From Cyanidioschyzon merolae (lineage: Eukaryota): a stretch of DNA of 64,000 nt. Made by a program: the position numbers and the translations under genes. Location: the NCBI GenBank assembly GCA_000091205.1, contig AP006485.2; one strand, 5' to 3'. Position 1 is the stretch's first letter. Each line of letters opens with the position of its first letter. Positions 3,307 through 57,275 of this stretch are shown piece by piece. The notes beneath the pieces are model-generated. The model had not been told where the DNA came from. It searched no databases and saw only the letters and a list, made by a program, of their open reading frames with translations.

Positions 3307-4015
3307 GGCGGACCGGTCGCCGCTACTGCACTATGCCGACGTCGTTCCGCTTTAGAACGGCGTTTGGCTGTGGGTGCAACTTTTCGACGTCATGCTTTCC
3401 AGTGCAGAAGGAGTAAAATTGTGCCACTGTAATCCATTTCTGCTTCTCTGCCGTCTGCGCCAATTCTGGATCATGTATCACTGTGGATGATATTTTGCGT
3501 TTTGAGAAAGTGTGGTTTACTGCTAAGGTTCATCTCTTTCCATGAATCAGTTCCTGAATGCGTTTACGCCACAGCTCCAAGTGTCAAGCAACAGAGCTGA
3601 CCGCTAACATCCACGACTGCGGAAACGGTCTAGAGGAGTCGTTTGCGCCCTGGCACAATCAACCACATCTCCAAGCTTCAATGTACTTGACTCACGGATC
3701 GCGAATTCTCATGTGCCCTGCATGTGCTGCTATGATCATCAACCAATATATGCACAACCCAATCTTGTTCTCAGATTATTTTCTTCACCGGTTTTTTCGA
3801 ATGCGCTCATATATAGATCCGGCTTCGCATATTCAGGTGCAGGACTCATGCCGCCTCCGTGATCCACGTGCTTAGCAGTATGTTGTCGAAGGCTTTTACG
3901 CAGTGAACCATACATTATTACCATTGCTTTGATAAGAACCTCAGCAGGTAGGCCTCGCAGCTTATGTTGTATCCCATATGCTAGTTGCGCCTGTACTCTA
4001 CGTCAAACTGGATGC

Positions 4016-6433: not shown

Positions 6434-7249
6434 CGAACGATCGCAAGACTAGACGTTTTCAATGACTGCAGCCACGTGCGTTGCGCGCGCAACGTTGGAA
6501 ACGCACGTTGCGCAACGCATGCAGCCGGTTCTGATCTCGAGATGCATGCGAGCACTTGAACCTGAACTATGTGGACCAATATAGAATGTAATGGACATTT
6601 ATGCACATGGACCAATCATCCAAAAGTTTGTTTCGATCTGCTACTGGTGGGATCCTGTACTAAACGGTACACATGGGACACCAACCAAGATGCACTAAAG
6701 GCCTTGGACTTGAAATGGAACAATCATGTCCTATTATTGTGTAAAAACGAATACGATGCATCATAATGCCAAAGTTCGGTTCCAAAGAGTCGCAGCAGCA
6801 CGCCCCTTGGGGCAGCCTGCAGCTGCCCCGATGCGCGAGCGCAAATGCGCGCATTCCGGGCAGCGGCGGTGTTGGCAATACGAAACAGTGGCGACATTTG
6901 TGTAAAGAGCGTCGAGGCGCCATCGTGGCGTCGGACACGTGTGCTTCATCGATCTGAGTAGCGTCTCGCGCGGTGCGCGCATCGCGCTCGGTGAGCGTCC
7001 CTGGGAGGTCGGGTAGTCAACGGACGCGACGCACTTGTCGCCGTTGAAGGGAAATGTGATCCTCAGGATTCGTTGGCGTGTTGTTCTAACATAAAACTTG
7101 TATTTGTATTGCAATCGTAACAAAATATATGGTTTCATCTCAGTCATGTTGCAGCCCTCAAGTAAAAATACTGGAGTGTTTTTTTCGCAGTATACAACAG
7201 GAACCTTCAAAGAGGGTTCTTTCTCAAAAAAAAACTAAAAAGGAAAGCT

Positions 7250-8042
7250 ATGAAAAAGCAAGTCCACGATCCTGGAGGTCCAGGGTCGGCGGCTGCTAGA
7301 AAAAAAACAAAAGACGGTGCCGAGTTCATAAGAAAAGGAAGAGAAAAAGAAGCAAAAATGGGAGGCCCTACGTAGAAGGCGGCAAGAAAGACGACCGCAC
7401 TACGAGGTTGTGGTGAAAACCTGTCTTCTTGGACATATCAAGGATCCCTACATGGAAAAGTTGCGAGACATTATCGAAAAACGTGTCGGCTCGTACTCCA
7501 AGAGCATTGTCAATGCGTCGTCAGGACTAATGCATTTGGTGAGGGAGATGTACCACGAAGTTACGCACATGGAAACGGTCGAGGTACCCTGACGGGTTTT
7601 TCGATAAGACTTTACTCATCACCTGATGCTTGGTACAGAGGAAACGCGGAAGGAAAATGAGCTAGTAAATGCCTTCCGCGAGAAACATCCCTTTTACAGT
7701 TTCGAGGGTACTCGATACAAGGGTGAACGGGATATTTACACTTACGAAGCGATGAAGTATCTCACGAATCTGCAGAACCATTTGACAGCGGACCTCGAAC
7801 GTTTTATGATACGCGCCGTGTTTGCACTTTACCCGGGCATCTCTCGCAAGGGGATATGGGCGATTATCAATGGCATCACGAAAGATCGCAAGCGTGACAA
7901 TGAGGTCGAATTTGTCGACAAGAAGGCCTCACGCAGGAGCACAAATGAGGATTCCGTCATCCGTGCGGTTATACAAGCGCACCGGGCAATCTCGAGGCTG
8001 GCGAATCCAGCAGGCAAGATATCAGAGTTGAAAAAAAGATAA
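7250..8042 (+). pseudogene. ORF-A companion protein (copy A), frameshifted
   Basis: The conserved leader ATG at 7250 ('aaaggaaagctATGaaaaagcaagtccacgatcc') gives 'MKKQVHDPGGPGS...', a basic Lys-rich leader ending at TAG 7373. The body then lies in other frames (7410-7592, 7626-8042) with a +1 insertion relative to copy B. It retains 'YTYEAMKYLTNLQNHLTADLERFMIRAVFALYPGISRKGIWAIINGITKDRKRDNEVEFVDKK'. Confidence 0.55.
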
Positions 8043-8160
8043 AATGCTGTCGCCTCATTCTGCTCGATTTCGTATTTCTGGACCGAGAGCTCGAACGCAA
8101 AGCGGAGATGAAGCTGAGTGAGGAAAAAATGAAGAATGGGAGAGACGGAAGGCGTTCCTA

Positions 8161-9600
8161 ACGGGGAAGCGCTTCAACGGGGTTCCGTTGTGCAACATCA
8201 AGTCACATTTTGTGAGTACCGACTCCGGCGTCCTTTATGGCATCATGGTGGGGTTCAGTCCGGAGTTCAAAGTTAGCAGGGAGGACTTCACCGGCGAGAA
8301 CCGGGTGACGTACTGGAAGAGTATCTTCGATTTCAAACCTGTAAAAGTCAGCAAACAGAAGGTATTCACTGGGTTGATCGAAACCGATGGAGTAGCCTTG
8401 TGCGTACACTACCGGCGGTTGAAGAAAGATCGGCCAGTCCCTCCCTTGGCTGCGCCCGTGACGAAGGATGCAGAAAACAAAGAGGCGGATGCTGCGACGC
8501 ACAGAGTGCAGGATAACGACTTTATTGTTGACGCGGCGAAGGATGACGATGAAAAGGAGGCGGTTCCTGAGACGGAGGAGATGGAGGATGACGACTTTGC
8601 GGTTGGCGCGGTGAAGGATGAAGAAAAGAAGGAGGCGGTTCCTGCGATGCAGGAGGTGCAGGATAACGACCTTGTCATTGGCACGGTGAAGGATGAAGAA
8701 AAGAAGGAGGCGGATCTTGAGACGCAGAAAGTGCAGGATAACGACTTTGTCGTTGGCGCGGACCCTGGAAATACGAATATCATCACCATCGCAGCACCGA
8801 AGCGTGCTGAAGATGGCACTGACGGTAACTTACGTCAGAAAGACATGCGTCTTTTAAGATTCTCGAGAGCGAGATACTACCGGGAATCAGGAACCATGAA
8901 TGCAAGGAAGAGAATCGAAACATGGAATGCCGGAAGAAAGGATCTCCTGGAAGCCTTGAGCGAGGTGACTAACCGAGGAGCGGACTTTGAAGCTTTTCGG
9001 AAACTCATGAAAGTTCGCGTTGCTCATTGGGATGCGCTGTGGGAGAAGTATACCAAGCCTCGGTGGGCTCGTCTGCGTATGAATCTATACGGTGGGAAGC
9101 AGCGGGCGTTTGCCAACTTTTTCAATCAGTTGAGTGCCCTCAAATAGGACAAGACTCAAAGGCTCGTAGTAGCAAATGGGGCAGGGCGATGGAAGACCCA
9201 AAAAGGCTGTACACCAGCTCCAACGACGCGAACGTACAAAGAGTGCGCAAGGCGTTTCGTTACGATACCTGTAGATGAGTTCCGAACATCGTATACACAC
9301 CACGAGCTGGGTTGTACACTTCAGAGAGTGGAGATGGAAAAGTGCTAGAGGAGCCCTGAAGATATAGTAAAGTATGGACCTCTGACGGAGGAACAAACGA
9401 AAAGGATGCGAAAGTTCGGGGACTACTTGCATCAGCATGTACAACCAGTGATGGCAAGAAACGTATGGAGTTTGTGAACCGAGACTTTCATGCCGCTATC
9501 AATGTCAGGAGATGTGCGGTGCTGCAGACGAGAACTCCAGAGCTGACACGAGAGAACTTTGTTGGACAACCTCTCAAAGACGAACTATATGAGAAAAATG
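8161..9600 (+). pseudogene. TnpB/Fanzor-like RuvC nuclease (copy A), disrupted
   Basis: Homologous to 16784-18025. The start codon is ACG, there is an in-frame TAG at about 9143, and there are more stops downstream. An internal ~84-nt tandem expansion is listed separately below. Confidence 0.7.
8455..8750 (+). repeat. Roughly 84-nt in-frame tandem repeat (about 3.5 units) inside the copy A nuclease ORF
   Basis: The repeating protein unit is 'KDEEKKEA(V/D)...[12 protein letters not shown]', and copy B has a single unit. The array ends at the RuvC-I motif 'GADPGNTN'. Confidence 0.7.
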
Positions 9601-9730
9601 GGAAGCAGTAGTAGGCAGCCGGCCGAAAAAAAAAGCCGGGAGGCGTCTGCATGTCAGTTGGACACTTTTCATGTGGGCGCCGGTCGCACTGCAGTAAACG
9701 CCCGACGTCGTTCGAGTTAGAACGGCGTTT
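9600..9730 (+). ncRNA. Conserved non-coding 3' tail of family 1 element (candidate omega-RNA / right-end region)
   Basis: 'gggaggcgtctgca..tcagttgga.ac.ttt...gggcg.ccggtcgc..ctgca.ta.cgcccgacgtcgttc.gtt.agaacggcgttt' is conserved between copies A and C and, more diverged, copy B, while the flanks are unrelated. Confidence 0.35.
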
Positions 9731-10700
9731 TGGAGCAGTCTGCAGAGCATCTGGTACTTTTTGCTTTGCCTTTATCGATATATGGATAAGGCTGTGGTTA
9801 CGATTCTTCTAGTACGGTCTTCTGACAGCCCGGGTCATTTCACTGCCTATTTTTTTCCAGGCACACCTTTTCATCTGCAGTGCGTCGACCGAATAGCCGT
9901 GAGAAGTTTACCCTCTTGGCCCTATAACTTTCTGACTTCATGCTTTCCACAGCACGAGCGCTAGAATTGTGCGATTCTAAAGCACTTCTGTCTTTCTGCC
10001 GCCTGGTGCTATTCTTGATCGTATTTCACTCAGAACAGCCTTTTTGGTTTTTGGAGAAATTCTGTTTCAAAGGTTTATCTGATATCTTCGCAACTGTCAA
10101 CTCCGTAATGCTTTCACAATACTACTCCAAGTGACACGCAACGAGGAGAAGCACGAATTTTTGTATCTGAAAGTAGACTCCATCGGAACGCCCCGCAAAC
10201 CTCTAGCCAGCATACTATTTCGATGCATAGATGCATGCGAAGCTCTGCTCACTCAGTCTCATGTGACCGACATCTGCTGCTATTCCTCTTCGCAAGTCTT
10301 GGCGCTACCGTACTTCTCTGTATATAAAACTGTATTCCGCGGCTTGCCTCGATTGCGCACAATAATAACTGTATGCAACTTTGCTCGTTCGTATAAGTTG
10401 CTATGGTTGTGCCCCTTATCAAAATCCCTGACAAAACGCAGTGCGAACCTTTTTCGAAATGTAACTCGTATGATCATCATCGCTTGATCATTATCCTAAG
10501 ACAGAAAAAGCGGAACCTAGAGTAGTACCATCGGTGCTGTTCGCCCCCGTGCTTCAGAGCAGATTGCCAGTTCAGCAAGCTGCAACTACAACACTTACGT
10601 AAGCCTCCGTTAAAACACGTGCTGCACTCGTCCAGTTATGATATAGCCTTTCTGCGTACTGCATGATACCCATAATACCCTCTGTGCCGAGCCCTGGTCC

Positions 10701-12767
10701 CTATAACTTGCGCAGAGCATCGACCGGCGCAGGCCACAACGCAGCATATGCCACGGCATGCGATGCGGACATCCCGTAGCAGCTCACCAGAATACCGTCG
10801 ACGACAAGGCGCCCTGAGCGAGTCAATGGCGCATAGAGACCATTGTGCGTAACGAAAGTCTCGATTGCCACCAAGGGGTCTGGCAGGTGCGCCGCAACAT
10901 CCACTAGAGTGTCGCCAATGCGTATATCTTCCGCGAGATCTACCTCAATGGCAGAGGTACCCAGCTCAAGCCTCTGACGTATTTGCCTCTGCTGCTGTGG
11001 CTGATGCTTCCCTGAAAGAGAAGAAGCTGTGGTCGTAACACTGTAAAAGTCTCTAGAGTGTCCAAGCATCCGATATACGAGATGCTGCCTCGTCAAACAC
11101 AGCTGCTTTCCGGAGAGCGTCTTGATCACCAGAATCTCCGCAGTAGCGCCGGGCTCGTTATGCAACCATCCTAGTACACTATCATCGACCAGTTGCCCAC
11201 GTCCATTGACCCCGATCGCGGCCATACCTGATCGAAGCTCGCTTATCTGCAGACTGTTGCCCAGACCATCGATCAGTACCGAGGCATCCGCGGGGAAGCA
11301 GACCGCAGAGCCTTCGCCTACAGCGGTCTGCGTCACATTTGTCGTTGCCGCCGGTGCTGCAGTAACGGAGCGTGTCGGTGATGCCGTCGGAGTCGGTGTT
11401 GCGGTCGGCGTAGGCGTCGGTGTTGCGATGTATAATGTGAAGAGGTCGTTATAGATACCTGAGCTTCCTTGGCCTCCGAACAGGACCGGGTCGTTTTGAT
11501 CGGTATCCCAAAGAACTGCATCAGCTCGCGGAGGTGGAAGCGTTGTATTGCTTGTCTTGTTAAGCTCGCCGTAACTATAGGCTCCATCTGTTGTATTGTC
11601 ACCGTCTACCCACGCCCATTCGAGACTCGTAATATTGAACGTCCACAGGTCGTTGCAGAGACCAGGTGAATAACCACCGAAAAGATACAGGGTGTTTGTC
11701 GAGTCTACGAATCTAGAGGAACCAGCTCTGTACCCGGGACTGTTATACGATGAGAGCACTCTTTTGTCGCCGAAAACTGACTCATTCGAGCCAACGCTAC
11801 CATCTCCAGATATCCAGGCCCATGCTCTAGAGCTGATATTGAAGAGCCACAAATCATTCAGAAAGCTGCGAATTCCGATACTCAGTCCTAGACCACCAAA
11901 GAGCCAAAAGTTGCCAGCAAGGTCTTGCCATGATGCGGCTCCGGAACGTCCAGCGGGATAGTTGCTCGGTGATGTCTGCCGAAACGCACCATAACTTCCA
12001 GAGGCAATCTGCTATTCAGTCCCTTCAATCCATCCCCATTCGTTGGTCACTATGCTGCACTACCACTAGTCACCGTAATATGCACCATTAGGACTAGATC
12101 CACCAAAGAGATAAAACTGGCCAGCCAAACCAACCCAGGTGGCGGGTAAGAAACGAGTGCCGGGCGTATTGTTCGAAGACGACTTCCCAAGAGTGCCATA
12201 TGTAGGGGAAATAATGGTCTTGTCGAAGCCCTGCACCCATGTCCACTCGCTCGACGATACATTATACATCCACATATCACAATACCCCGAGTTCAAATTC
12301 CGGCCTCCATATAACCAAAGGTTTCCGTAGCTGTCGCTCCATGCAGCGAGTTGCCTCCTCGAGGGCGGAGCGTTGCTCTCTTTGGGAACTCCGAGGAAAC
12401 CTTATACCCCTGCAAGGTTGGGGGATACAGAGCCTCCAACCCAGGTCCAAGTCTACGCGCTCAGATTGTAGTACCAGAGATTATCAACGACGCCACTCGG
12501 GACGCGACCACCAACCAACCAGAGCACTACGTCAACGCCGGTCCAGGAAGCCGCACCGTGCTGCGCCGGAGGCACGTTGCTGCTGTTTGGTACACCCTGA
12601 ACATCGTAGCTAACCGCGCTACCGGTAGAGTTACTAATGCCGATCCAGGTCCATAAAAAAGTATTCACGGCCGAAAAATCCCCTTGAACTGTGTGCATAT
12701 AAGACACAACCAAGATTACAACTAGGTGTCTCACTGCAGAAAAATCTCGTATTCGGATTTGAAACAT
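10701..12767 (-). pseudogene. Second Kelch-(TP)n-Hint 'Hog' paralog, interrupted by in-frame stops and frame breaks
   Basis: The signal-peptide start is 'MFQIRIRDFSAVRHLVVILVV' (12767) and kelch blades 'FYLFGGSSPNGAYYGD' and 'FWLFGGLGLS' follow. Two adjacent in-frame TAGs ('ggtgacTAGtggTAGtgc', about 12077-12085) and one more interrupt the frame, and 12296-12453 is frame-discontinuous. The intact 3' part 10701-11852 carries the TP linker and Hint domain 'CFPADASVLIDGLG...GLYAPLTRSGRLVVDGILVSCYG'. Confidence 0.6.
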
Positions 12768-16783: not shown

Positions 16784-18025
16784 ATGGGTAAGCGCTTTAA
16801 CGTGGTTCCAATGTCCAATATCAAGTCACATTTTGTGACCATCGACTCCGCGGTCTTTTACGGCATCATGAAAGAGATCAGTCTGGAGTTCAGTGTCAGC
16901 AGGGAGGACTTCACCGGCGAAAACCGGGAGACGTACTGGAAGAGTATCTTCGATTTCAAACGCCTCAGAGTAAGCAAACAAAGGGTATTTACTGGGTTGA
17001 TCGAAACCGATGGAGTATCCTTGTGTATAGACTATCGGCGGTTGAAGAAAGATCGTCCAGTTCCGCCCTCGGCTGCGCCCGTGCCGAAGCATGAAGATGA
17101 GAAGGAGGCGGATCTTGAGACGCAGAAAGTGCAGGATAACGACTTTGTCGTTGGCGCGGACCCTGGAAATACGAATATCATCACCATCGCAGCACCGAAG
17201 CGTGCTGAAGATGGCACTGACGGTAACTTACGTCAGAAAGACATGCGTCTTTTAAGATTCTCGAGAGCGAGATACTACCGGGAATCAGGAACCATGAATG
17301 CAAGGAAGAGAATCGAAACAGGGAATGCCGGAAGAAAGGATCTCCTGGAAGCCTTGAGCGAGGTGACTAACCGAGGAGCGGACTTTGAAGCTTTTCGGAA
17401 ACTCATGAAAGTTCGCGTTGCTCATTGGGATGCGCTGTGGGAGAAGTATACCAAGCCTCGGTGGGCTCGTCTGCGTATGAATCTATACGGTGGGAAGCAG
17501 CGTGCGTTCGTCAACTTTTTCAATCAGTTGAGCGCCCTCAAGGAGAATGAAAATCAGAGGCTCGTAGTAGCAAATGGGGCAGGGCAATGGAAGACCCAAA
17601 AAGGATGTACACCAGCTCCAACGACGCGAACGTACAAAGAGTGCGCAAGGCGTTTCGTTACGATACCTGTAGATGAGTTCCGAACATCTTATACACACCA
17701 CGAGCTGGGGTGCACACTTCAGAGAGTGGAGATGGAAAAGTGCCAGAGGAGCCCTGAGGAAACAGCAAAGTACGGACCGCTGACGGACGAGCAAATGGAA
17801 AGGAGGGCGCAAGTGCGGGGATTGCTTGCATTAGTACGTACAATCAATGGCAAGAAACATATGGAGCTTGTGAACAGAGACTTTACCGCCGCCATCAATA
17901 TAAGGAAATGTGCGGTGCTGGAGGAAAGACCTCCAGAGTCGACACGAGAGAACTTTGTTGGACAACCTCTCAAAGTCGAACTATATGAAACAAAGTTGGA
18001 AGCAGTAGTACATGGCCCGCCGTGA
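16784..18025 (+). CDS. TnpB/Fanzor-family RNA-guided-type RuvC nuclease (413 aa, intact ORF)
   Basis: ATG at 16784. Motifs are RuvC-I '[21 protein letters not shown]', RuvC-II '[31 protein letters not shown]' (the E, then H/H/C/C residues in place of a C4 Zn finger) and RuvC-III '[20 protein letters not shown]'. The size and motif order match TnpB/Fanzor2-like proteins. Confidence 0.8.
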
Positions 18026-22067: not shown

Positions 22068-22570
22068 CGATTCCATAGACCAGGGATTCCATAGACCAGG
22101 GATTCCATAGACCAGGGATTCCATAGACCAGGGATTCCATAGACCAGGGATTCCATAGACCAGGGATTCCATAGACCAGGGATTCCATAGACCAGGGATT
22201 CCATAGACCAGGGATTCCATAGACCAGGGATTCCATAGACCAGGGATTCCATAGACCAGGGATTCCATAGACCAGGGATTCCATAGACCAGGGATTCCAT
22301 AGACCAGGGATTCCATAGACCAGGGATTCCATAGACCAGGGATTCCATAGACCAGGGATTCCATAGACCAGGGATTCCATAGACCAGGGATTCCATAGAC
22401 CAGGGATTCCATAGACCAGGGATTCCATAGACCAGGGATTCCATAGACCAGGGATTCCATAGACCAGGGATTCCATAGACCAGGGATTCCATAGACCAGG
22501 GATTCCATAGACCAGGGATTCCATAGACCAGGGATTCCATAGACCAGGGATTCCATAGACCAGGGATTCC
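22068..22570. repeat. Perfect 16-bp tandem repeat (ccatagaccagggatt)n, about 31 copies
   Basis: Seen directly. The 16-nt period keeps all three frames open, which explains the overlapping 'GIPGLWNPWSMESLVY' ORFs on the minus strand. Confidence 0.95.
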
Positions 22571-22589
22571 AAATTGCGGGACAGATAGT

Positions 22590-23150
22590 GGCATTCGGGA
22601 TGGCGTTCATCAAGTTGCACTGTACGTCCAAGTTCCATGAACGATACGTCCTCTCGGATGTACTGGTCGTTTCATGTATTCCATCGTCCTCCGAATGCCT
22701 ACCCAGAGCACCCGCCATAGCACCCACACCGCCGGTGCGGATACCGCACAGAGAGAGAACGGCGTTGCCGTACCACCGGGAGCGTCGGCTCGACGCATCA
22801 TTCATTCAACAGGGAATTCGGGACCCTTTATTATTCTGGGAGCTGGCAAACTGTGCAGGACTACCTACTACCGGCTGCAGCGCGAAGCGATGTACTAGGA
22901 GACCACCACGCCCAGAGCGATGCCCAGACGCCGCCCAACCGCTCCTAGCCCCAGAATATACTGTGTTGTGGGCGAGCTTTTCAGGTCTCATGACAGCATC
23001 CGGCACTGCGGAGTCGGACGGAGCACAAAACCGACAGAATCGTCCGGCTCGCGAGACCTCCCGCCTAAAAGGTACACGTTCGATTACGCGGGAACCGTTT
23101 CCACATATCAACGCTTACCTTGCAGAAGAAAAGAAGCGGTTACCTAGGTG
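22590..23150 (+). repeat. Non-coding dispersed repeat, family 3 copy
   Basis: Collinear with 34500-35030 ('cctctcggatgtactggtcgtttc', 'gagcacccgcc', 'acggcgttgccgtaccaccgggagcgtcggctcgacgc', 'ttattctgggagctg', 'cgtccggctcgcgagacctcccgcctaaaaggta'). Confidence 0.65.
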
Positions 23151-29013: not shown

Positions 29014-29809
29014 GGCGCCTGTGGCAGTACGCCGCCACCCGGGCCTCGTGAGACCAGTCGACGGATGATGAGGATGGAGCCAGTGCATGAAGCGAAATGC
29101 CGCATGGTTTCTGGTGGTCATGATGATGGACACTTCGCGGTTGGGCACAAGTCATAAACGATTGCCTGAATGGTGCTCTGAGAGAACGAACGTGCATCGG
29201 GGGGCGGGGGTCTCCTGACCGCGCTTCCACTCGCCAGGGAACATTCATATCGAGACGCCGGTGGCGCTGGTGGCCTCATGAGCCGCCTCGAGAGACAGCG
29301 TTCGGCAGGTATGTTACGCGTCTGCGATGCAGCGACATGTACGAGACGCAAGGCGTTGCAGCTGCTGCAGCCTCCATAGTAGACACCCTGTTTGGGCAAC
29401 GACATCGAACTCGAGAGCATCGCGCACAGGTGTTGCATGCAGCCATCTGCTGGACTCGTGTGAGATGGGAATCGGCCAAGGAGGTACTCGTCCCGTTCCT
29501 GAATTTCTAATTTTTCGACGTTTTTCTGAGAGACAGCTTCGGCATTCGAAATGCAGCAGTAGCGCACACGGATTCATTCATCATTCCGGGATTCTAGGTG
29601 GTTTTTCTTTTTCGAAGCGGTACCATCTACTCCATGTCGATGCGAATCGTTACGAAAGAGGAATCAAGATAGTTCGGGTTAGCCTCTAACAAAGCCTCGA
29701 TATATACACTGTATCACTATCCAGTTCATACGTATAATCCTCCGCAATTCACCTTGGCTTGTCTGTTGCATGCCCCTATCACGCATTCTTCAGGTTCTTC
29801 CTCGTACTA

Positions 29810-30750
29810 TTTGAAGGCAAGCCGTGGATGCAGTAATCCGTGCCGCTGAATTAAAGAGGAAAGCAACTCGAGATTGCCGTATGGCAACTTGTTCACAAGC
29901 TTGTGCTAAAAGGTCATTGAGCGTGTCACGTCGAATAATTGATGTCATTCGAAAGAGAAACACTTCTCTCTCTGGTCATCAACGAAGCGGTATTCTACAG
30001 CAGCCGCAGCAGCAGAATACCTGTCCCGGTATGTGATTCCAGAGGGTCTCGTCTCTTCCTTTTGCGTAGTACAGGGTCCTGGACTTGAGTCATCGAAGCG
30101 ATCGCTTCCAGTGAAGCGCGCGTCAGCGATTTGCACGGAGGAAGCGTAGACGGATCCGAATAGTTTGACTTGTTCTCCAGCATGGATATTCCGTCCAGTA
30201 CTTGTTTCATCATGGACACCATCGCTTTCCACCTTTGCTCTTTCTGATGGAACAGCGAGCGTTTACGCGTGCAGCAGTGAGGGTGCTCATTGAGGGAATC
30301 GCCCGGACGGAGCCCGTTATCTTAGGGCACGGAACCGCGCCCGGAAACTTAAGAGGACATCCAGCGAGGCCCTCTCTACGCAACACGGGCTAGTTCAGAG
30401 CCGTGTTGGAAGCGTTCGCGAGCCACAGGGCAGCGTTCGAAGGAGGAGGTGCAGTGGACATATGGGGGCACCTGACCCCAAACATGCCTCACCGCTGCAA
30501 GCGGCGCATCGGGGATGGATGGATGCAAAGCGGATGAAAATGGCAAGCCAAGCGTAGATCGCAACTTCCGTCTATGCATGATTTGCGTCGACTACAGTCA
30601 GATGCAGCGGCATCAGTACTTGAGCGCTACCATGAACATCCTTCGACTACGGACGACGGGGCTGGTGCGGCAGGAGAGACCAGCGTATTTAAAGCCGATA
30701 ACAAGAGCGAGGCAAATGACGTAGTCGCAGGCATCGCCCGCAGGGGCTGT
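29810..30750 (+). mobile_element. TnpB-derived short element, family 2, copy 1
   Basis: About 0.9 kb, collinear with 33195-34090. It ends in a TnpB-like C-terminus 'DRNFRLCMICVDYSQMQRHQYLSATMNILRLRTTGL' (30515-30724). Confidence 0.55.
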
Positions 30751-31134
30751 CGTTCATGACAGCGTTCGGCGACCCCGACTTGGTGTACACAGGCGAGTCG
30801 GAGGACCTGTTGCATTTGATTGTGTCATGAGCGTAGATACGCTTCCGTTCATAAACGCCAACAGCAATCACGGGTTCGGGATCCCTGGGTGGACTCGCAT
30901 GTACCACTCCGCCGAAAACCTTTCATATGTAGGTATCCGAATGTGCCGATCGTTTCCACATGACCTTTTGGAAAACTGTACGGAAAGCGAAAGGAGCCTC
31001 GCGATGTAATCCTCGTGTTCCCCTCGTCCGCTTAGAGGCTCCACTTTTGTGCGTATCAGCAGGCATCGATCACGATGGACGCGTCCAGTACTCACGACTA
31101 CAACGCATGCGCTGGAATCAGAGGGTCTGATTCG

Positions 31135-32145
31135 CTAGCTGCTGGATGCAGTGCTCTGTAGACCCGCCGCTTTCGGGAAGACAAGCGCCTTCAGCAGGTT
31201 CATTGTGAGCATCTGATGGCAGTTCTCGTCACAGAGCCTCTTCACGCCGTCCGCTAGGCGACGCTTTGCATCAAGTTTGCCAACGCGCGACACCGCGAGC
31301 TCCTCCTTCGATCGAGAACGCAGCTCCTCCTTCACCATGTCTGTGTAGAGTTTGGATAAGGACACCATGTCCTTCAACGTGGTTTCACTATGTTCCCGCT
31401 GGCGATCTTGGTCCCGCGACGAAAGCGATCGCGTCCACTTGGGTCTATTTAGATTCAGAAGCATCTTTCTTTCCAAATCATTCAGTTTGTACTCCATTCT
31501 CAGGGAATAGTAGTGGCGATTAAGCCCGTGAATCAGTGCCTGGATGGAAGGCTTGTTCAAACTACCCGCGTTACTGGTCGTCTGTCGCGGCTCCATGCCA
31601 AGGATGGCAAGCTGAGGGTTCAAGGTCCGGAAAGTGTCCGCGACTACCTTGCCTTTCACAGACTGGATAGGATCCACGACAAGGGATACCGCTCGAGCGT
31701 TCAACGCTTCGAATGACTGCGCCGTATTCACATCAACGCCAGACAGCCAGCAACCAAAGCCAGGGTGGCTGTGACCCCAGCCGCAGACGACCTCGTGCCG
31801 ACCGGTCTGCTGCAGCGCTTCCAGAAACTGCTGCTGATACACGGCGTCAATGGCCTCGACAGACACGCCAGTACCCGATTGCGGCATAGCGAAGTAGTCT
31901 ACGACGTTTATCGTCCAGTCATCAACAAACTCGCCGAGAAGCAAACCCATGACTTCCATGGGAACACCCGCACGTGCGTGCTTGAGAATTTTCAGCAGCG
32001 CCAGCGATGAGAGGTACACCGTCTCCGAGGTATCGCTTTGTGGGATATCCGCCCCCGCTGCGGCAACATCTGCACCTTGAATAGGGAGAAATAAGTGGTT
32101 CGCCCGATCCATGTCAAAGGTCGAGAGCCGCAGACCAGTGAGCAC
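31135..32145 (-). CDS. RPN11: 26S proteasome lid deubiquitinase RPN11/PSMD14 (JAMM/MPN+); the likely true ATG is at 32112 ('MDRANHLF')
   Basis: '[34 protein letters not shown]...[16 protein letters not shown]...[22 protein letters not shown]...[13 protein letters not shown]' is near-identical in pattern to PSMD14, and it ends with TAG. Confidence 0.9.
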
Positions 32146-32569
32146 CGGCAGTCACCTGGTGATGCAGCACAAGCACTGCTGCTGAACCTGGGAAGCACTC
32201 TGTGGATGAGTTCTTCACGCGCGCACGCGCGCCCATAGTCTTTCAACTCAGTTGCATGATACCCGTAGGTGCGTAGAATAGAATGCTTTTTCGTGGTTTG
32301 TAGCAGCTGCCTTCGAATGCGTTCAATTCCAAAAATAGAAAATAGAAGGAAAACGTATGAATTTGGGAGTTGGGCATCCTAGAGGGCCGTCGCGGCCAGG
32401 TTCTACGAAGAAACGAAAGAATCCTCTTCTCACCGGCTATCGAGCGATGAGGACGAAGATAAAGAAGGCGGGAGATAGGAGTGAGAAAAGGAGTTTGCCC
32501 GACGAGACGATGTGGAGACACTGGTGACTCTGAGGGCACGAGTTCTAGGAATCCTTGCTATGGTGCATT

Positions 32570-32800
32570 CAACCAGTATCAGTGCACGCATGGAGTTCGT
32601 GAACCGAGACTTTAAAGCCGCCATCAATATCAGACGATATGTAGTGCTGTAGACGAGACCCGTGGAGCTGAAGCGATCCAACTTTGTGGGGAAGCCTCTC
32701 CGGCTCGCAGTGCGCGCGGAAAAGCTGAAGCCGATAGCAGGCGGCAGGTCACAAAAGGCTGAGAGGCGTCTGTGGCTGGATGCATGTATATACATACGCT
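32570..32800 (+). mobile_element. Family 1 (Fanzor-type) 3' fragment: RuvC-III end plus tail
   Basis: 'MEFVNRDFKAAINIRRYVVL*' is followed by '...ggctgagaggcgtctg', which matches the 3' ends of copies A, B and C. Confidence 0.6.
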
Positions 32801-33194
32801 ATATGGGCGCGGGGCGTTGATCATTTTAATGATCACTCAGGGATCTACACGCGTGTCAGGCGAGCATGGAACCGTGAACTGCTCGTTCTGTTCCTGCTCT
32901 TACGAGTTGTTCAATCTTGTTCTGAACAGTTCAGCTGCGACATTCGAGGCGGAGCGATAGGGGCGTACCGATTCACTCGTGTCTCTAGGACGCTCGGTTG
33001 TTTATCCAGAATGGCTACTTCGACGCTTTCCCGTTGGAATTCGTGACGTCAATAGAATCGAGATGATCCGCGACGCCGTACAACAAGGCTTTTTTAACGT
33101 AACGGACACAAACTTTGAATTCATAGGCACTTGCATCCGCTTTTGTTCTTTTACCTATGCGTACCATGATCAAGGCAGAAATTCCTTGTGTCTT

Positions 33195-34090
33195 CTCTGT
33201 TAACCAACCACAAAAGCATGGCGGCGACGATTAGAGCTGCTCGACTGACACATGAAAAAATCTCGATGTCATTCCCTGAAGACTTGTTCACAAGCTCAAG
33301 CCGAGATTTTACTGAACTTGTCAGGCCAAATAATCGGTTCATTTCGAAAGAGAAATTGTGCTGTCTTTATAGTCATCGACGGAATGGGATTCCAAACCAG
33401 CTGGATGCCTCGGAAGCAATGTATCTTCAGCGACTGCCGTCTTCTCTGTCCGAATCGAAAACGGGTCTTGGACTCCGACATGAGCCATCGCAGCGATTGT
33501 TTTCCGGGAAGCGTGCGTCAGTGATTTGCACGAAGAGAGCGTAGACGGCTCCGCATTTTTGACTTGGTCTCCAGTCTGGATATTCCCTTCCAATACTTGC
33601 TGCATCATGGTCAACATCGCGATCAGCGTACCCGCTAGCTCATGGAACAGCGTAGACGTGCGCGTGCATCGAGCAGCGTCCTCGCCGAAGGCATCGCCAT
33701 CAGGGACCTCTTGGTCGTAGTGTAAGATGCCGGACTCGGAAAATCGGAGTAGTGTATCGAGGGTATGCATTTGTACCCGCCATGCGCATGTATCGCTCGA
33801 TGAAGCCAGCGCTCCAGCGCCACAGCACATCCGTCGCAGCAGAGGACAGTTTCGCGAAGCAAGAAGAAAACCCGGCCACACTCAAGTGTCACTGCTGTGA
33901 CAGATGCTCCAGCGCTGTTTGCCCAGAAGATGAAGATCTGAATCGATTCATAGATCGCAACGTTCGCCTATGCCAAGAAAGCATCGACAACAACGGAAAG
34001 CAGCGACATCGGGACTTGAACGCTACAATCAACATCCGTCCACTGCTGACAATGAAACTGGTGTAAAAGAAGAAACCGCCGTATCCATAG
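33195..34090 (+). mobile_element. TnpB-derived short element, family 2, copy 2
   Basis: Collinear with 29810-30750 (for example 'gcgtcag(c/t)gatttgcacg.ag.agcgtagacgg', 'ttgacttg.tctccag..tggatattcc'). The C-terminal ORF 33752-34066 reads 'LKCHCCDRCSSAVCPEDEDLNRFIDRNVRLCQESIDNNGKQRHRDLNATINIRPLL' (Zn-finger-like plus RuvC-III-like). Confidence 0.6.
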
Positions 34091-34499
34091 CCGGAGGTTA
34101 GAGAGCTGTGAACGAAGCAAGCACAGAAATGCCCACGTATATGCCGCTGAACAAGAAAATGCATCGAAGACCAATCGTTTCAGTCTTCTCCGGACTTGGG
34201 CCTGCCCATATGTCCCTTTTGATGCTAACGTGCGCATCGTGTGCCGATACCCGTACAGAGCGCTTCACACGTCACAAATTCCGCACCTGCACGCTGCATA
34301 GAGCATCCTGGCGTGCTTCACTTGGACAGTACTTGTACGAATCTGGAGCAAACCAGTCATCTGTGGAGGTGCTGCCTACGCTTCAGAACACACACGCCAC
34401 AGCCTTGCACAAACGTTTCAGCACGGGCGTTTTGTCCAATCGATTTTTTTCGATGCGAAAACCTTTACGTTGACCATAGATTCCAGATTGCGTGATAGA

Positions 34500-35030
34500 T
34501 AATGGATTTCGGGAAAGCGTCCATATTGAAGCACCTACCTTCAGGTTCCGTTACCCATACTTCCTCTCGGATATACTGGTCGTCTCGCACGTTCTGTCGT
34601 GCGACGACTGCCTGCCGTGAGCACCCGCCGTTGCGCTTCTATACACCGCTGAAGCAGATGTTGCACGGATACAGAACGGCATTGCCATTCCACTGAGGGC
34701 GTCGGCTCGAGGCGTAATTCATCCGACACGACGTCGGAGTACAGAATTATTCTGGGAGCCTGCGACAGCGCAAACCGATCTACCAGGCGTCCACTGCAAC
34801 CAGGGCGACGCCAAGACGCAGCATACGCGCTCCTAGTCCCAGAATGAATTGCGTTGCAGACGATCCGCTCAGTTTTCAGTACAGCACCTGCCACTTGGGG
34901 GAGCAGGAAGCACTAGCCAGCCCCGCAGACTCGTCCGGCTCGCGGGACCTTCCGCCTAGAAGGTAAGCTTTCGAAAATACGGAAACTTTTCCCCTTTTCA
35001 ACGCTTCCTATCAAGGTCAAACAGCACTGT
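34500..35030 (+). repeat. Non-coding dispersed repeat, family 3 copy
   Basis: See 22590-23150; same orientation. Confidence 0.65.
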
Positions 35031-49753: not shown

Positions 49754-50846
49754 GGAGCGCGCAGAACCCTATCGGTCGCTGAAGCGTAGCGGTACGGGAG
49801 CAGCTCACGAAACGCGCGCCGCAGCTGAGGGCGCACATTCGATTCGAGATTCGGCAAATAAAACAGTATAAAATTGTCATTAATGGGATGAAAGGTGTCC
49901 ACTGCTGGGATGATAGCTGTGAGGCAGACAGTGAGCGCTGCTTTGTAGCACGATACCAGTGCAGCGATAGTGAAGTCGCTGAAGCGTCAAACCCGCCGCT
50001 AGACCGAGGATAACGCGGTCAAGACTCGCGAGTATTGGGAAGATCGGTTTTGTACGGGGCTCCTCGGGCGCGATGCGCTCGTTCCAGCATAGCGGCAATG
50101 GGTTACAGCCTGCGTGACGTGCGTGACATTCTGCTCCGGGCTACTCGGCAGTGCGTCCGTTGTGCGCACTGGTACCAGTATGAAAGCGGAGTCGCGGACT
50201 GCGACTGTTAAGCGTGGGTGCACGATACCATCATCGGTGTCGGAAAGCTAATGTGTCTTTGTCTGGTGTTCGCAACGTGGTGCATCTGTACGCAGCAATG
50301 TCGATGAATAGAATACCATGCTCGATCAGTATTTACTTGGGAACGTTGCCCCGGGGGTACATAGATCGCCGTGCAGCCTTTCTGGATTACTGAATGATAC
50401 CACGCGAGTGTCTGGCTCAACACGTAATTCGAGTGCCATTTATCCTGGACAGTGAATTTGTTTCTCCGCAAGTCTCGCGCGTTTCCGAGCGATACGCGGA
50501 GTGAATTACGAACATTGAACTCGAAGCATCGCTCGATACGAAGCCGCTGGACGCTCACCAGACCCGACACATTTTCGTATTCTGATTGATGCAGTCAGGT
50601 GTCGATGCGGAAAAGATTTGCGCGCATGGTTGCTGGCGGAATCACTCCAGGATCGGTTTCAGACCTGCGACTACCACGCCATCTCAGGTTCGAACAGCTT
50701 ACCGTATACCATATCCGTGTATGCGCCTCTGTTTCATGCGCTCCCCGACCGTTTTCAGCGCAACCCGTGCTTGTGATGCATGTATTTCGTCCTGAACGCA
50801 TCGATGGGAATCCAGCAACTTCGATCGCTCCACTTGCTGTACGCTA

Positions 50847-53018
50847 ATGTCGACGGGGCACGCGTGCAGCCGCTCCACCACCAATTTCACGAACGTAGTG
50901 TCACGCCGACGCCGCCGCCGACGCTGCTGCACAGCCGTAAACACCAGCCGCTGCGCGTGCCGATCGCATCCCAGGACGCCACCGTTATTCAGAACGTTTT
51001 CGCAACGTACAAACGCAACTTCCATGTACGAACTGTGTCAACCAACGGGGACTGCTGGATACCCTTATTTTCTCTTTGGATCGCAACAGGATCAGCGTCT
51101 CAACTACAGATCGGTTATTGTGCACCGCGCTGGACTAGCTCAAGAGACGGCTGGCGATGGCGGCGTCAGCACGAGCAGCAGCGCTGAAACCGGGAACAGC
51201 GTCAGCGCTTTGGCGTCAGCAGCCGCAGGGCGTCGTGTCAAGTTTCGGGAGCTGCGTCGAACGAAAATCGTATGTACTATAGGGCCTCCGACGGCCTCTT
51301 ATGAGATGATCAAGGCTCTTGCAGACGCTGGAATGGACGTTGCTCGCTTGAACTTCAGTCACGGGACGTACGAGTTCCACAAGAAAGTATCGGACGCCGT
51401 CGATCGCGTCAATGAGGAGCGTTTTGAGAAAGCTCGTCGAAGGTGGACGTCGCACGACGAGGCACGTGAGCAGTTGACAGACTCCGCCAAATCGGTGGCG
51501 GTGTCTGACGCCGGTCCCCTGCGTACCGAGAGCACGTCAAGCTCCACTGACTCGCTGAATAGTGTGTCGGGCCTCGAGTACAGAAATGACGCTAAGAGCG
51601 CTCTGTATGTGCGCATTGGGAAAATGATGGACTCAAAAGGTGCGGAAGTGCGCAGCGGGGAGATCAACCGAGCGGAGGAGATTGCGAAGCGAATGGTGGA
51701 GCACGGCTTGGTGACCTCCGATCAGGTAACAGAACTCGTGAGCCAAAACACCATGTTAATGCCGGCAGGAAGCTCGCTCGTTCTGCGTTGTACGCATGAG
51801 GCATTTGAGAAGCAGCCGGAACCTCTTGAGGGTGTCGCGGTGAAAGGCTCCGTTTTACCTTTTGCGCCAGTAGTCGGTGTCAGCTATGCGGGATTCTTCG
51901 AGGACACAGCCGAAGGCGATTGTATTCTTGTTGATGGCGGTCTCTTGGAGTTACAGCTGGAGCGCAAGGACGCTGACAAACGGGATCTCATCTGCCGCGT
52001 GTTGGACGGTGGCGAGCTCTCGCCCCGTCGCCATTTGAACATTCGCGGAAAGACGGCGTCGTTGCCCTCGGTTACCGAATCCGATTGGAAGGATATCGAG
52101 TTCGCTGTGAAGGAACTCAACGTGGACTTTATCGCCTTGTCGTTTGTGAATGACGCTGAAACCGTTCACATGGTGCGAGAATTTGTCACGAAACTTGGCT
52201 CGCGGGCGGCGATCATCAGCAAGATCGAGAGCATGAAGGGTGTGCTGAACCTCCCCGCAATCATCGAGGCAAGCGACGGGGTTATGGTGGCGCGTGGCGA
52301 CCTCGGTAGCGAGCTGCCCCTGGAAGAGGTGCCTATCGTCCAGTCCTTCATGGTGCGTCTTTGTCGAGCGGCAGGCAAAGTGGTCATTACGGCCACGGAG
52401 ATGCTCGAGTCCATGATCGAGAAGCCCATCCCGACGCGGGCGGAGGCCTCGGACGTGGCCCATGCCGTGGAGCAGGGCGCCGATGCACTGATGCTCAGCG
52501 GCGAGACCGCCAAGGGAAAGTATCCGATCAGAGCCTGTGCCACGATGCGCCATATTATCATGCGACAAAACGAGCAGCTCATTGCAGACGAACGTGCTCG
52601 TCAGGGGCTGGATCCGATTGCCGGCTTTGCCGAGTGTTGCCGCGACGTGGAGCGTGTATCCGATGCCATGGCCCGAGCAGCGGTCTCTCTGGCGGAATCG
52701 TTAGACGCGGCCGCGATCATCGTCTTCACACGAACGGGCAACATGCCCAAGCGCCTCTCGAAGCTGCGGTCACGAATACCGATCGTTGCTGCGACTGCAG
52801 TTTCCGATATCCAACCGAAACTCTCGCTCTTGTGGAACGTATTCTGTGTAACCATTGAAGTGCAGGATACGTTTGAAGCAACGTTCCAACGCTTCAAAGA
52901 GGAAGTTTTGGCGGAGAACTTTTTACGAAAAGGTGATACGGTTGTGGTGGTACAGAGTGGCATGCGTGGTATCTGGCGAGAACAGGGCCATCATCTGCTC
53001 CGCTATGTGGTAATGTAA
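50847..53018 (+). CDS. Pyruvate kinase with a roughly 150-aa N-terminal extension and low-complexity insertions
   Basis: 'RRTKIVCTIGPPTASYEMIKALADAGMDVARLNFSHGTYEFHKK', 'IISKIESMKGVLNLPAIIEASDGVMVARGDLGSELPLEEVPIVQ' and 'VITATEMLESMIEKPIPTRAEASDVAHAVEQGADALMLSGETAKGKYPIRA'. Confidence 0.85.
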   Translation: MSTGHACSRSTTNFTNVVSRRRRRRRCCTAVNTSRCACRSHPRTPPLFRTFSQRTNATSMYELCQPTGTAGYPYFLFGSQQDQRLNYRSVIVHRAGLAQETAGDGGVSTSSSAETGNSVSALASAAAGRRVKFRELRRTKIVCTIGPPTASYEMIKALADAGMDVARLNFSHGTYEFHKKVSDAVDRVNEERFEKARRRWTSHDEAREQLTDSAKSVAVSDAGPLRTESTSSSTDSLNSVSGLEYRNDAKSALYVRIGKMMDSKGAEVRSGEINRAEEIAKRMVEHGLVTSDQVTELVSQNTMLMPAGSSLVLRCTHEAFEKQPEPLEGVAVKGSVLPFAPVVGVSYAGFFEDTAEGDCILVDGGLLELQLERKDADKRDLICRVLDGGELSPRRHLNIRGKTASLPSVTESDWKDIEFAVKELNVDFIALSFVNDAETVHMVREFVTKLGSRAAIISKIESMKGVLNLPAIIEASDGVMVARGDLGSELPLEEVPIVQSFMVRLCRAAGKVVITATEMLESMIEKPIPTRAEASDVAHAVEQGADALMLSGETAKGKYPIRACATMRHIIMRQNEQLIADERARQGLDPIAGFAECCRDVERVSDAMARAAVSLAESLDAAAIIVFTRTGNMPKRLSKLRSRIPIVAATAVSDIQPKLSLLWNVFCVTIEVQDTFEATFQRFKEEVLAENFLRKGDTVVVVQSGMRGIWREQGHHLLRYVVM

Positions 53019-53329
53019 AGGGACAGAGCGCATGCTCCAGAGGCCCCGGATACCCGCTGACGATCATAGCCGGTGTAAAGAGTGGCGCGGGAATCTTGCG
53101 CTTCCACGGAGCATGATGTTGGCGCGTGCGCTCTCTCACTGAGTCTCTCAGTACCAGGAAGCCAAGCAAAGCGATATGCGCACGGTGCTCGCTTGGTACC
53201 TGGGTGCAGCGTGCGCACGGCAGCGCTGCTTCCCGCACCACTGCCGCCAAAAAACGGAACGGGTCGACGAGCGCGGTCGTACGCGATAACGTTTGGTTCG
53301 CTTATCACATCAATAACACAAGCTTTTCG

Positions 53330-53500
53330 GCGCTTTTTTCTCTGTGACTGCTTCATGGTATCGTCTCTTTTATTCGGCTTTATATTCGTTGGTCTTTCCT
53401 CTTCGGTAAGCTCCGTTGTCAGCAGTCGAAGGATGTTGATGGCAGCGTGCAACTCCTGATTTCGCTGTTTCCGACTGTATTCCATGCATTTCATGACCAA
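53330..53500 (-). mobile_element. Family 2 (TnpB-derived) fragment
   Basis: 'CMEYSRKQRNQELHAAINILRLLTTELTEEERPTNIKPNKRDD' matches family 2 copy 1 'CMICVDYSQMQRHQYLSATMNILRLRTTGLVRQERPAYLKPITRARQ'. Confidence 0.45.
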
Positions 53501-54782
53501 GCGGAAGCTTCGACCTACGCTTCTTCTGAAACGAACATCTTCTTCGTTCTATAAAGCATCGGCGTGCTCTTCGCAGCGGGCACACTTGGATCCTGTCAGG
53601 TATACTCATGTTTCGGCCAGAGCGTATTCTACGAGCGGTGTCCCACGGAGCACGAACGCGTGCTTCATCACTCGGAATACATCCCTAACTGGTACAGAAA
53701 AATCCAGTCAATGTCATTCTCCGTCTTCGCGCTCGCTGCCGCACCACAGGATCATGAGTTCTCCCATACTGTTCCTTTGGGCGAGTCCTATGTCTGCTGC
53801 AGACACAAGCGCAGGCTACACCATTCGATAGGTAATTTGTGGAGCTTGATGCTGTGTATCATGGGCAAGCATCGGAATGGCATTGAGTCTTGAGAACGAG
53901 TCCAGAAATACTGATTCGTGTACGCTACCTTCGAGCAAAGTGGTTATGCCCGCGCGACTGGTGCGGATCGTTGCAATGATTAACGTCCGAGTCGGATGTT
54001 ATTTGCGATGCCGAACGAAAACACGGGAGCATCTGGGAGCATATTCCATGACTGGTATCGAGTTCGTGTGGAGAGATATTTCGTCCATGTCGACAAAGAA
54101 GGAAGGGTTTCGTCTGCGAACGGACTCGTTTACTGGACGTGAGAATTTTAGTGAGTTTTCGGCATGAGGTCACGAAGGAGTCGTCAACGTACAAAGTCGA
54201 AACTTCGCTCGCCAATCCAGCGGCGCGAATCTCTTCCCCGTGTTTTTGCTTGAAACGTGGAGATCGTGATCTTGAAATATACGACATTTGAGCATACGAA
54301 ACGTAAATAAAGGAGAAGAATGGAGGCTTGGACCAATGAACAGGATCATGAGATAGGTACTTTTACCGGCCCCTGTTGGAGGATGTCACGAATCATGCCG
54401 ATTCTGGTAACGTAACGATTCCAAACTGCAAAGACTCGAAGAAACCACTGCAAAAGACAAAGAAAACAACGCATCAATCTGTAAACCCATTGTTGATGCA
54501 CATCGAATGCAGTGGCTGTACATCTAGATCAAGCTAGGAGAATATTTCGGAATCTAGGAACAGCGCCAGCAGTTCAGCGCTCCATTCGAACCCCACAAGA
54601 GTCTAGCGTTCAGAGCGGGCACTTTGTCAACGTTTCTACCAAGCCGGCTCCCCAGTTTGACGCGTCGTCAAGAAAGACACACACGCTGTCCAGGCATACA
54701 TTGCAGCAACCAAGCCGTGCGCGACATCCGAAGCGCAAGGCGTCGTAGAGCGCTTTTCCGCCTGGAGACGACGCCTCCGGTG

Positions 54783-54908
54783 GCACTGCGACAGCAACAC
54801 CAAGACGCATTCCAGGGCACGGTGAAGACGATGCCTTCTCTGGAGGCACTGCGACAGCAACACCAAGACGCATTCCAGGGCACGGTGAAGACGATGCCTT
54901 CTCTGGAG
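54783..54908. repeat. 63-bp direct tandem duplication (x2)
   Basis: 'cactgcgacagcaacaccaagacgcattccagggcacggtgaagacgatgccttctctggaggca' occurs twice in tandem. Confidence 0.8.
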
Positions 54909-55034
54909 GCACATACAGGCTCCATCCAAAGCGGCGCACCAGGCGGGACGCGCACCCCTGCAAGCGGGTGCCGCGTGCAGCGCGTCTCCAGTGGCCGCGA
55001 ATCCAGAGTTGCAAGACGCTGAGCGTCCACATGT

Positions 55035-56612: not shown

Positions 56613-56847
56613 AGAGGAGCAGTGCGCTCGGTAACCGTACCAGAACGCTTCTATCACCCCAAGTCCAAGTATGTTGGTTAGAGTGATGGAAACAGACCAA
56701 TCTATAGATCGAAACCTGCGCCCTCTGATAATAATCACGAGCCAATGACCGTTCCTTTTACCGTGTGGCTCGTACTGCCAACTGGAACGAAAGCAGAAGC
56801 GCACGCGCCCGAGTGCATCCTGCCAAACATGCGCGCAGGGCGTGCAA

Positions 56848-57275
56848 GAGAACTGGCGAGTCATTCCATGTTGACGGAATTTCGGAAAAGGTTTATATAG
56901 ATATAGAAGAGAAAGCTCACGAGAACTGGCGAGTCATTCTTTGTTGACGGAATGTCGAAAAGGTTTATATAGATATAGAAGAGAAAGCTCACGAGAACTG
57001 GCGAGTCATTCTTTGTTGACGGAATGTCGAAAAGGTTTCTATAGATATAGAAGAGAAAGCTCACGAGAACTGGCGAGTCATTCTTTGTTGACGGAATGTC
57101 GAAAAGGTTTATATAGATATAGAAGAGAAAGCTCACGAGCACTGGCGGGTCATCCTTCGTTGATGGAATGTCGAAAAGGTTTCTATAGATATAGAAGAGA
57201 AAGCTCACGAGAACTGGCGAGTCATTCTTTGTTGATGGAATGTCGAAAAGGTATACATAGATATGGAAGCATTCA
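56848..57275. repeat. 72-bp minisatellite, about 6 copies with point variants
   Basis: The unit 'gagaactggcgagtcattctttgttgacggaatgtcgaaaaggttt(a/c)tatagatatagaagagaaagctcac' repeats with period 72, so periodic 24-aa ORFs stay open on both strands. It lies directly upstream of ERO1. Confidence 0.9.

Follow-up and report, generated by a model that had tools for sequence, protein, structure and literature searches.

Probable relics of a non-autonomous mariner-type transposon with a Fanzor1 remnant on both sides of RPN11 of Cyanidioschyzon merolae, a red alga

Introduction

The closest described systems to the one treated here are the Mariner elements PUl-1 and PGv-1, which carry a transposase gene together with a Fanzor1 gene and are accompanied by TA duplications (PMC3627910; PMC10530073). 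Non-autonomous relatives and chimeric Fanzor elements, in which Fanzor is frequently met, are also on record (PMC3627910, PMC10530073, PMC10711439), and the combination of transposase and Fanzor1 as such is already published. Active Fanzor elements encode a guide RNA at the segment that corresponds to the 3' end of the gene and the sequence downstream of it (PMC10530073). In Cyanidioschyzon merolae, the Fanzor1 family CMe-1A comprises about 150 copies of ~3 kb, with ~80% identity to their consensus and no terminal inverted repeats (TIRs) (PMC3627910). Here we describe another repeat family of this alga, found around the proteasome gene RPN11 in a stretch of 64,000 nucleotides of contig AP006485.2 (assembly GCA_000091205.1), hereafter the window. 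We call this TnpB-tailed repeat family 2, and the other Fanzor1 repeat family present in the window family 1.

C. merolae is a model red alga that is very poor in transposable elements. With a probability of roughly 80%, we take family 2 to be what is left, in ancient and decaying copies, of a non-autonomous transposon of 1.38 kb that belonged to the IS630/Tc1/mariner (ITm) superfamily, contained the remnant of a Fanzor1 gene and originated by internal deletion. An initial annotation of the window had already regarded the repeats around RPN11 as deletion derivatives or non-autonomous elements, and this is still the best reading of them.

Copies of the repeat and their consensus

The two copies at both sides of RPN11 (A and B) align by gapped blastn in three collinear blocks of 70–78% identity at a constant offset of ~3395 nt, with additional minus-strand matches near 53.4 kb and at 62.7–63.1 kb. 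Refinement of the boundaries on alignments of 8 and then 11 copies gave a unit of ~1.38 kb, of which the window carries four copies, A and B on the plus strand and D and C on the minus strand (Table 1). The end of copy C lies a short way upstream of the next gene, whose start codon is at 62637. The initial annotation had proposed two copies of 0.9 kb in the same orientation bracketing RPN11, and a third fragment at 53330-53500. The bracketing arrangement is confirmed by blastn and the TnpB-like peptides that it quoted are found in the tail open reading frames (ORFs) of copies B and D. The size has to be corrected to that of the complete unit, the supposed fragment is the tail of the full-length copy D, and copy C comes in addition.

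Decay has gone too far in single copies for family searches to succeed with them (Pfam scans gave nothing, except TNB at E=0.073 on the tail of copy B) and only consensus sequences worked. These were built successively from the four window copies, from 8 copies and from 11 copies, the seven additional ones coming from metagenomes. Used to scan metagenome contigs from JGI, the consensus protein gave 9 loci, representing four new distinct copies, and the 8-copy consensus recovered ORF fragments of three further dead copies from a collection of 5.8 billion proteins, in which the 4-copy consensus had found no matches. One of these three shares its assembly with a metagenome contig (the variant contig) that has 99.3% identity to the window and is arranged in the same way, copies A and B included. 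No intact relative was found in the protein collection with either the 4-copy or the 8-copy query. A metagenome scan based on the multiple alignment was fruitless, since no stretch is conserved enough, in contrast to the successful single-consensus query. Searches of PDB sequences, by phmmer or with profiles, returned no mariner, TnpB or Fanzor structure; the queries were family 1, the tail of copy B, the profile of the four copies and the transposase consensus of the 11.

The 11 distinct copies have the same structure, lie at unrelated loci and align over their whole length, a similarity far above chance. Their identity to the family consensus is 60–80% (69–77% for those in the window). None of the 11 retains an intact ORF. 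Stop codons and frameshifts occur in each of them and the substitutions between copies show no codon-position periodicity, indicating neutral decay as pseudogenes.

A transposase remnant followed by a Fanzor1 remnant

The 5' ~0.8 kb of the consensus corresponds to a DDE transposase of IS630/Tc1 type, from the helix-turn-helix (HTH) region to the second catalytic Asp. The first hint of such a core came from a column-registered translation of the four-copy alignment, which reads VVIDEAAF...RGSR...SWT...IAAI...EGSVDG...IMDNIAFH upstream of a Cys-rich tail. When the 4-copy consensus was compared to 24,736 Pfam families exactly two appeared, TNB (E=0.004) and DDE_3 (E=0.015), both still below threshold. 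The DDE_3 score was 37.9 bits with the 8-copy consensus and 39.6 bits (E=6e-10) with the 11-copy one, over a cut-off of 28.6. The NCBIfam model NF033545 (IS630 family transposase) gave 54.9 bits (E=9e-15) and 56.1 bits (E=3.8e-15), respectively, against a curated cut-off of 100; the match covers positions 20-238 of the 299 in the profile, its end being placed at ~238-260. The consensus thus has an N-terminal HTH and a DDE_3-type core with an incomplete catalytic triad, only the first two Asp being present. The transposase part breaks off just after IMDNIAFHKS, its frame meets stop codons ~35 codons past the second Asp, and the region of the third catalytic residue (profile positions ~239-299) was not found in any of the three frames downstream. 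The peptide SVPVKGMYRAMK was considered as the third IS630 motif (NPIExxWxxLK) and rejected: it aligns to the SVPT.RA.KEC segment of Fanzor1, and the IS630 alignment stops earlier.

The 3' ~0.5 kb represents ~165 codons at the end of a Fanzor1 gene, stretching from the RuvC-II region as far as the C-terminus, i.e., more than a zinc ribbon alone. We compared a 10-row alignment of this tail by hhalign to a Fanzor1 profile made from 39 aligned relatives of the family-1 ORF 16784-18025, for which over 1,200 relatives were found, among them many of 600–700 amino acids (consensus of the 39: G.DPGR.NI ... VVVAYG.AKFAPGGKGE.SVPT..KEC..RF.T..VDEFRTT ... FVNRDLNAA.NI.RC.....RP..L.R). Tail positions 7–162 matched columns 476–614 of the 648 in the profile, with a probability of 98.1% (E=1.1e-13, 139 columns). 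Neither the RuvC-I Asp motif nor the N-terminal WED/REC half was found, the homology to Fanzor1 beginning at column 476. The Pfam TNB (PF07282) score of the tail rose as the consensus improved, from 13.7 to 17.6, 22.0 (8 copies) and 26.4 bits (11 copies, E=8e-6, cut-off 26.3), and the NCBIfam model guided_TnpB matched weakly (E=0.008) at its extreme C-terminus. This climb with each addition of copies is contrary to a chance similarity of the TnpB-like residues, which the initial annotation had contemplated as a way in which it could be wrong. The TnpB derivation that it had proposed holds, by TNB and hhalign, for the C-terminal tail, while the ~0.8 kb that make up most of the sequence it had delimited are the IS630/Tc1-mariner pseudogene.

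The consensus tail reads LTTAKCHRCE...RL(C/Y)MKC...RNQDLNAAINIL, with the [TS][TS]-x-x-C4 finger and then the RD / D-x-NAA-x-NI (RuvC-III) motif as defined by Bao and Jurka. Other recognizable motifs are RuvC-III as RDxNAAINI and a C-terminal ERP..L, and in copy L005 the tail reads CKCHVCITCSDSSKKPRDRDFNGAINIFRL, with RDRDFNGAINI at RuvC-III. The family-1 clade is devoid of the zinc-finger cysteines, gives no Pfam hit whatever, and the pairwise BLASTP match of its protein to the family-2 tail is marginal (E=0.045). Judged by its sequence, the tail, which has kept CxxC...CxxC, belongs to a Fanzor1 lineage other than that of family 1, as the initial annotation had supposed.

Termini, junction and flanks

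The ends of the consensus, TACACTCGTGTGAGATTAGAATGGAACA at the 5' side and, reverse-complemented, TACACCCATGCCGGAATAAAATGGAACA at the 3' side, form a TIR of ~28 nt in which 20–21 of the 28 positions match, a score that none of 500 shuffles reached. L005 taken alone has a perfect 12-mer TIR, equalled by 8 of 500 shuffles, and L013 also retains the repeat. An early search on single copies, made with wrong boundaries, had given scores at chance level. The dinucleotide next to the 5' end is TA in three copies and TG in two more, and that next to the 3' end is TA in five copies; CG is found at some others. In copy A, the places where a TA target-site duplication would be expected are occupied by TG (29451-29452) and TA (30834-30835), and TA is found at 32846-32847 in copy B and at 54604-54605 in copy D. 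The boundary check advised in the initial annotation gave inverted repeats in the consensus and frequent TA at the flanks. Since TIRs of this kind are typical of the ITm superfamily, the unit was probably moved by a DDE transposase and not by a TnpB-type system.

After the Fanzor part there are ~75–90 nt of 3' sequence and then the 3' TIR. It could be argued that the chimera, instead of being an arbitrary product of deletion, is a "double parasite," selected to keep exactly the cis-elements of both parental machines, namely both ITm TIRs, on which a transposase could act in trans to mobilize it, and the Fanzor 3' end with its downstream sequence abutting the right TIR. We regard this as unlikely. 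If it were true, the element could also have been serviced, through homing or retention guided by RNA, by a Fanzor supplied in trans, and family 2 would be a eukaryotic counterpart of the non-autonomous, ωRNA-bearing IS200/605 derivatives.

Only a few bases separate the end of the IS630 alignment from the start of the Fanzor alignment (~30238-30241 in copy A). The distance between the second Asp motif and ILGYG is exactly 110 nt in 9 of the 11 copies, a spacing that leaves the two parts out of frame (2 mod 3), and the common offset indicates that the chimera was already present in the master element. This spacing bears on the view that the 1.38-kb unit was itself autonomous and coded for a fusion protein, in which a Fanzor zinc-finger/RuvC-III module stood in place of the C-terminal part of an ITm transposase, third catalytic helix included. 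A length of 1.38 kb (~430 codons) is indeed what autonomous IS630/Tc1 elements typically have, the two enzyme families both adopt RNase-H-like folds in which a C-terminal helix bears the third catalytic residue, and the 11-copy consensus has an open tail frame of ~190 codons. However, the shared frame offset, the stop codons that follow the second Asp in the transposase frame, and the absence of any intact protein of such architecture among the 5.8 billion sequences make a fusion very unlikely. As a separate observation, a 12-nt stretch of the 11-copy consensus is duplicated in tandem (TCGCCAAGGGGA / TCGCCCAGAGGA) between the second Asp and ILGYG motifs, ~50–70 nt 3' of the mapped breakpoint and inside the Fanzor-derived part (~30287-30310 in copy A), that may be a scar of junction formation.

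The flanks of A and B have no similarity to each other, and the same applies to all 11 copies, whose similarity begins and stops at the common TIR-like ends. Unrelated flanks point to separate insertions and not to one segmental duplication, the other way in which the initial annotation had foreseen that it might fail. A broader version of that idea, in which a nested insertion or rearrangement at one locus spread by segmental duplication, the family never having transposed as a unit, could appeal to the segmental duplications that involve family 1 in the window and to the location of copy B among a nest of other old repeats. Against it, besides the flanks and ends, the copies are roughly equidistant from one another in a star-like pattern, and we consider it very unlikely.

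The suggestion of a truncated or non-autonomous TnpB/Fanzor element proper, with no other transposase and with an upstream ~0.9 kb of degraded Fanzor coding or non-coding sequence, is largely refuted, and with it the whole unit as one TnpB-sized RuvC protein: the tail is truly Fanzor-like, C. merolae is rich in the TIR-less Fanzor1 elements CMe-1A (PMC3627910) and VVIDEAAF and VLAEGIA can be read by eye as RuvC-I and RuvC-II motifs, but the upstream part matches DDE_3 above the Pfam cut-off and also the IS630 model from the HTH to the second Asp, Fanzor homology starts only at column 476, with RuvC-I and everything N-terminal to it absent, family 2 bears TIRs, and the family-1 protein fails to detect family 2 by tblastn.

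Origin of the family

The internal-deletion origin that we favor, as the most economical one, would have started with an autonomous mariner-type transposon in which a Fanzor1 passenger gene came after the transposase gene and was oriented like it, an arrangement published for PUl-1 and PGv-1. One internal deletion would have taken out the 3' end of the transposase gene, the spacer and ~70% of the Fanzor gene, and its product, with both TIRs, would have spread to TA sites and amplified, the parental transposase acting on it in trans. All of the family would then have become extinct, leaving each copy ~25% diverged from the master. What can be seen today is that fragments of the transposase and Fanzor1 genes, known here as fragments alone, lie inside one TIR pair.

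Several observations weigh against this interpretation. The autonomous parent, with a complete transposase, a full Fanzor1 and the same TIRs, was not found in the metagenome and protein collections searched, so the deletion scenario rests on published precedent. Both the IS630 and the TNB homologies are seen on a reconstructed, frame-stitched consensus and no natural ORF shows them. Significance of the TIR is confined to the consensus and a handful of copies, for instance L005 and L013, decay being too advanced in most of the others taken singly. The flanking dinucleotides are suggestive of a TA target-site duplication and, with termini placed to within 1–2 nt, fall short of proof. Finally, the 3' region has no RNA-structure signal: a guide RNA (ωRNA/fRNA) was sought in the retained 3' segment with no Rfam match and no consensus folding signal (z=+0.6), in copies that are too decayed for covariation.

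RPN11 is a bystander located between A and B, outside the element, and A and B would be independent insertions that flank it by happenstance. The initial annotation had pointed out that direct repeats around a housekeeping gene could mediate its deletion or duplication, for which we find no present-day support. About 30% of the sites differ between A and B and recombination between them is implausible today, given that their longest exact match is 15 nt. These copies are too diverged to recombine and have no functional implication for RPN11. For annotation purposes, what looks like a short TnpB repeat would be the relic of a mariner-type transposon, and C. merolae would once have hosted a second, zinc-fingered Fanzor1 lineage inside an IS630/Tc1-type transposon.

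Other features of the window

The window is intron-poor, eukaryotic and has ~55% GC. In addition to the RPN11 protein, its ABCD3 protein is also an exact match to C. merolae 10D (BAM78960.1). Coordinates of the main features are collected in Table 1.

Table 1. Family-2 copies with their parts, RPN11 and family 1 in the window (minus-strand copies are given from their 5' end).
Feature	Position	Strand	Remarks
Copy A	29453-30833	+	Full length, 1381 bp; 76.7% identity to consensus
5' TIR, copy A	29453-29480	+	Decayed; not significant in copy A alone
Transposase pseudogene, copy A	29529-30240	+	HTH region, both Asp motifs, truncated before third motif
First catalytic Asp motif VVIDE, copy A	29972-29986	+	Consensus profile match
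Second catalytic Asp motif IMDN, copy A	30209-30223	+	Consensus profile match
Fanzor1-derived fragment, copy A	30238-30759	+	Frame differs from transposase part
RuvC-II-region homologue ILGYG, copy A	30319-30333	+	
Zinc-finger region, copy A	30487-30498	+	
RuvC-III motif DLNAAINI, copy A	30617-30640	+	
ERP motif, copy A	30674-30685	+	Stop ~30757
3' TIR, copy A (...GTTGCATTTGATTGTGTCATGAGCG)	30806-30833	+	Followed by TA
Copy B	32848-34243	+	Full length, 3' end ±~10 nt; 72.3% identity to consensus
Transposase part, copy B	32927-~33635	+	
Fanzor part, copy B	~33633-34156	+	Includes ORF 33752-34066
Copy D	54603-53236	-	Full length; 73.1% identity to consensus
Transposase part, copy D	54523-~53831	-	
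Fanzor part, copy D	~53833-53310	-	Tail ORF 53003-53500
Copy C	63553-~62675	-	3'-truncated shortly after junction; 68.9% identity to consensus
RPN11 (26S proteasome lid subunit)	31135-32112	-	Pfam JAB and RPN11_C; protein = BAM78961.1 (exact, C. merolae 10D)
Family 1	1178-3365, 6927-9730, 15560-18118		Matches CMe-1A

Other repeats are found in the vicinity of the family-2 copies. A unit of ~540 nt at 32234-32772 (+), which ends in a Fanzor1 C-terminal fragment (32533-32745), adjoins family-2 copies at four independent loci, the others being L003 2350-2627, L005 1244-1482 and L011 3821-4352, in varying orientation and at varying distance. At the other side of copy B, a repeat at 34472-35006 is similar to 22558-23116 and to L011 4502-4810. 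The ensemble around copy B looks like a nest of old elements without a consistent arrangement. Adjoining copy D there is a tandem repeat with a period of ~60 nt (54763-54912).

All four window copies have antisense ORFs that stay open for 95–185 codons, for example 33339-33881 (-), 62521-63078 (+) and 29945-30232 (-). The one in copy B (33339-33881) has been called as a gene in the variant contig, and antisense ORFs inside family-2 relics carry "hypothetical protein" annotations in metagenomes. We rejected it as a real gene, its sole database relative being the same locus (a JGI "hypothetical protein"), and it is very likely an annotation artefact.

Concerning family 1, 1178-4734 and 7336-11305 form a tandem segmental duplication that contains two family-1 copies and also doubles a gene with Kelch repeats and a Hint domain (ORFs 4016-6433 and 10701-11852, -). 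A tandem repeat with a period of 75 nt inside a family-1 copy (8462-8761) encodes acidic repeats of the KDEEKKEA type. Another decayed Fanzor1 C-terminal fragment, 34% identical to residues 274-388 of family 1, lies at 50533-50871 (-) and overlaps with the beginning of the ORF for pyruvate kinase (50847). Two other tandem repeats were found. The one at 22069-22571, within overlapping minus-strand ORFs, is perfect (shifts of 64 nt give 100% identity, and the comparison to the variant contig shows a sub-period of 16 nt) and differs in length between the window and that contig, and the one at 56845-57269, upstream of an ERO1-like gene, has ~6 copies of a 72-nt period with 89–95% identity.

Comparison with known systems

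Family 1 fits the published CMe-1A (PMC3627910). Family 2 shares with CMe-1A the host, a similar age (~70–80% identity to consensus) and the RuvC-III and C-terminal motifs (NRDxxAAINI...ERP). However, CMe-1A encodes a whole Fanzor1, whereas family 2 holds just the end of a gene from a different, C4-fingered lineage.

Compared with the bacterial IS630 and eukaryotic Tc1-like elements (DDE_3, NF033545), family 2 has an HTH, two Asp motifs (VVIDE and IMDNIAFHKS) at profile-like spacing, short TIRs and a length of ~1.4 kb. Instead of the third motif and the C-terminus (~239-299) it has Fanzor sequence, and encodes no functional transposase. The preservation of the termini, with loss of the interior and amplification in trans, would be as in the internal-deletion derivatives of the Ds/Ac type and in MITE (miniature inverted-repeat transposable element) precursors, but here the deletion would span two different genes, leaving a recognizable two-gene chimera.

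The nearest parallel is with PUl-1, PGv-1 and PUl-4 (Bao and Jurka, 2013, PMC3627910; Jiang et al., 2023, PMC10530073), in which, as in family 2, ITm transposase and Fanzor1 sequences are found within one TIR pair with TA-type flanks. In family 2 these are just fragments joined out of frame, with no intact parent found and with all copies dead, and the host is a red alga, where the TIR-less CMe-1A is the sole Fanzor family reported. Family 2 would therefore add a rhodophyte case to the known association of Fanzor with mariner transposons.

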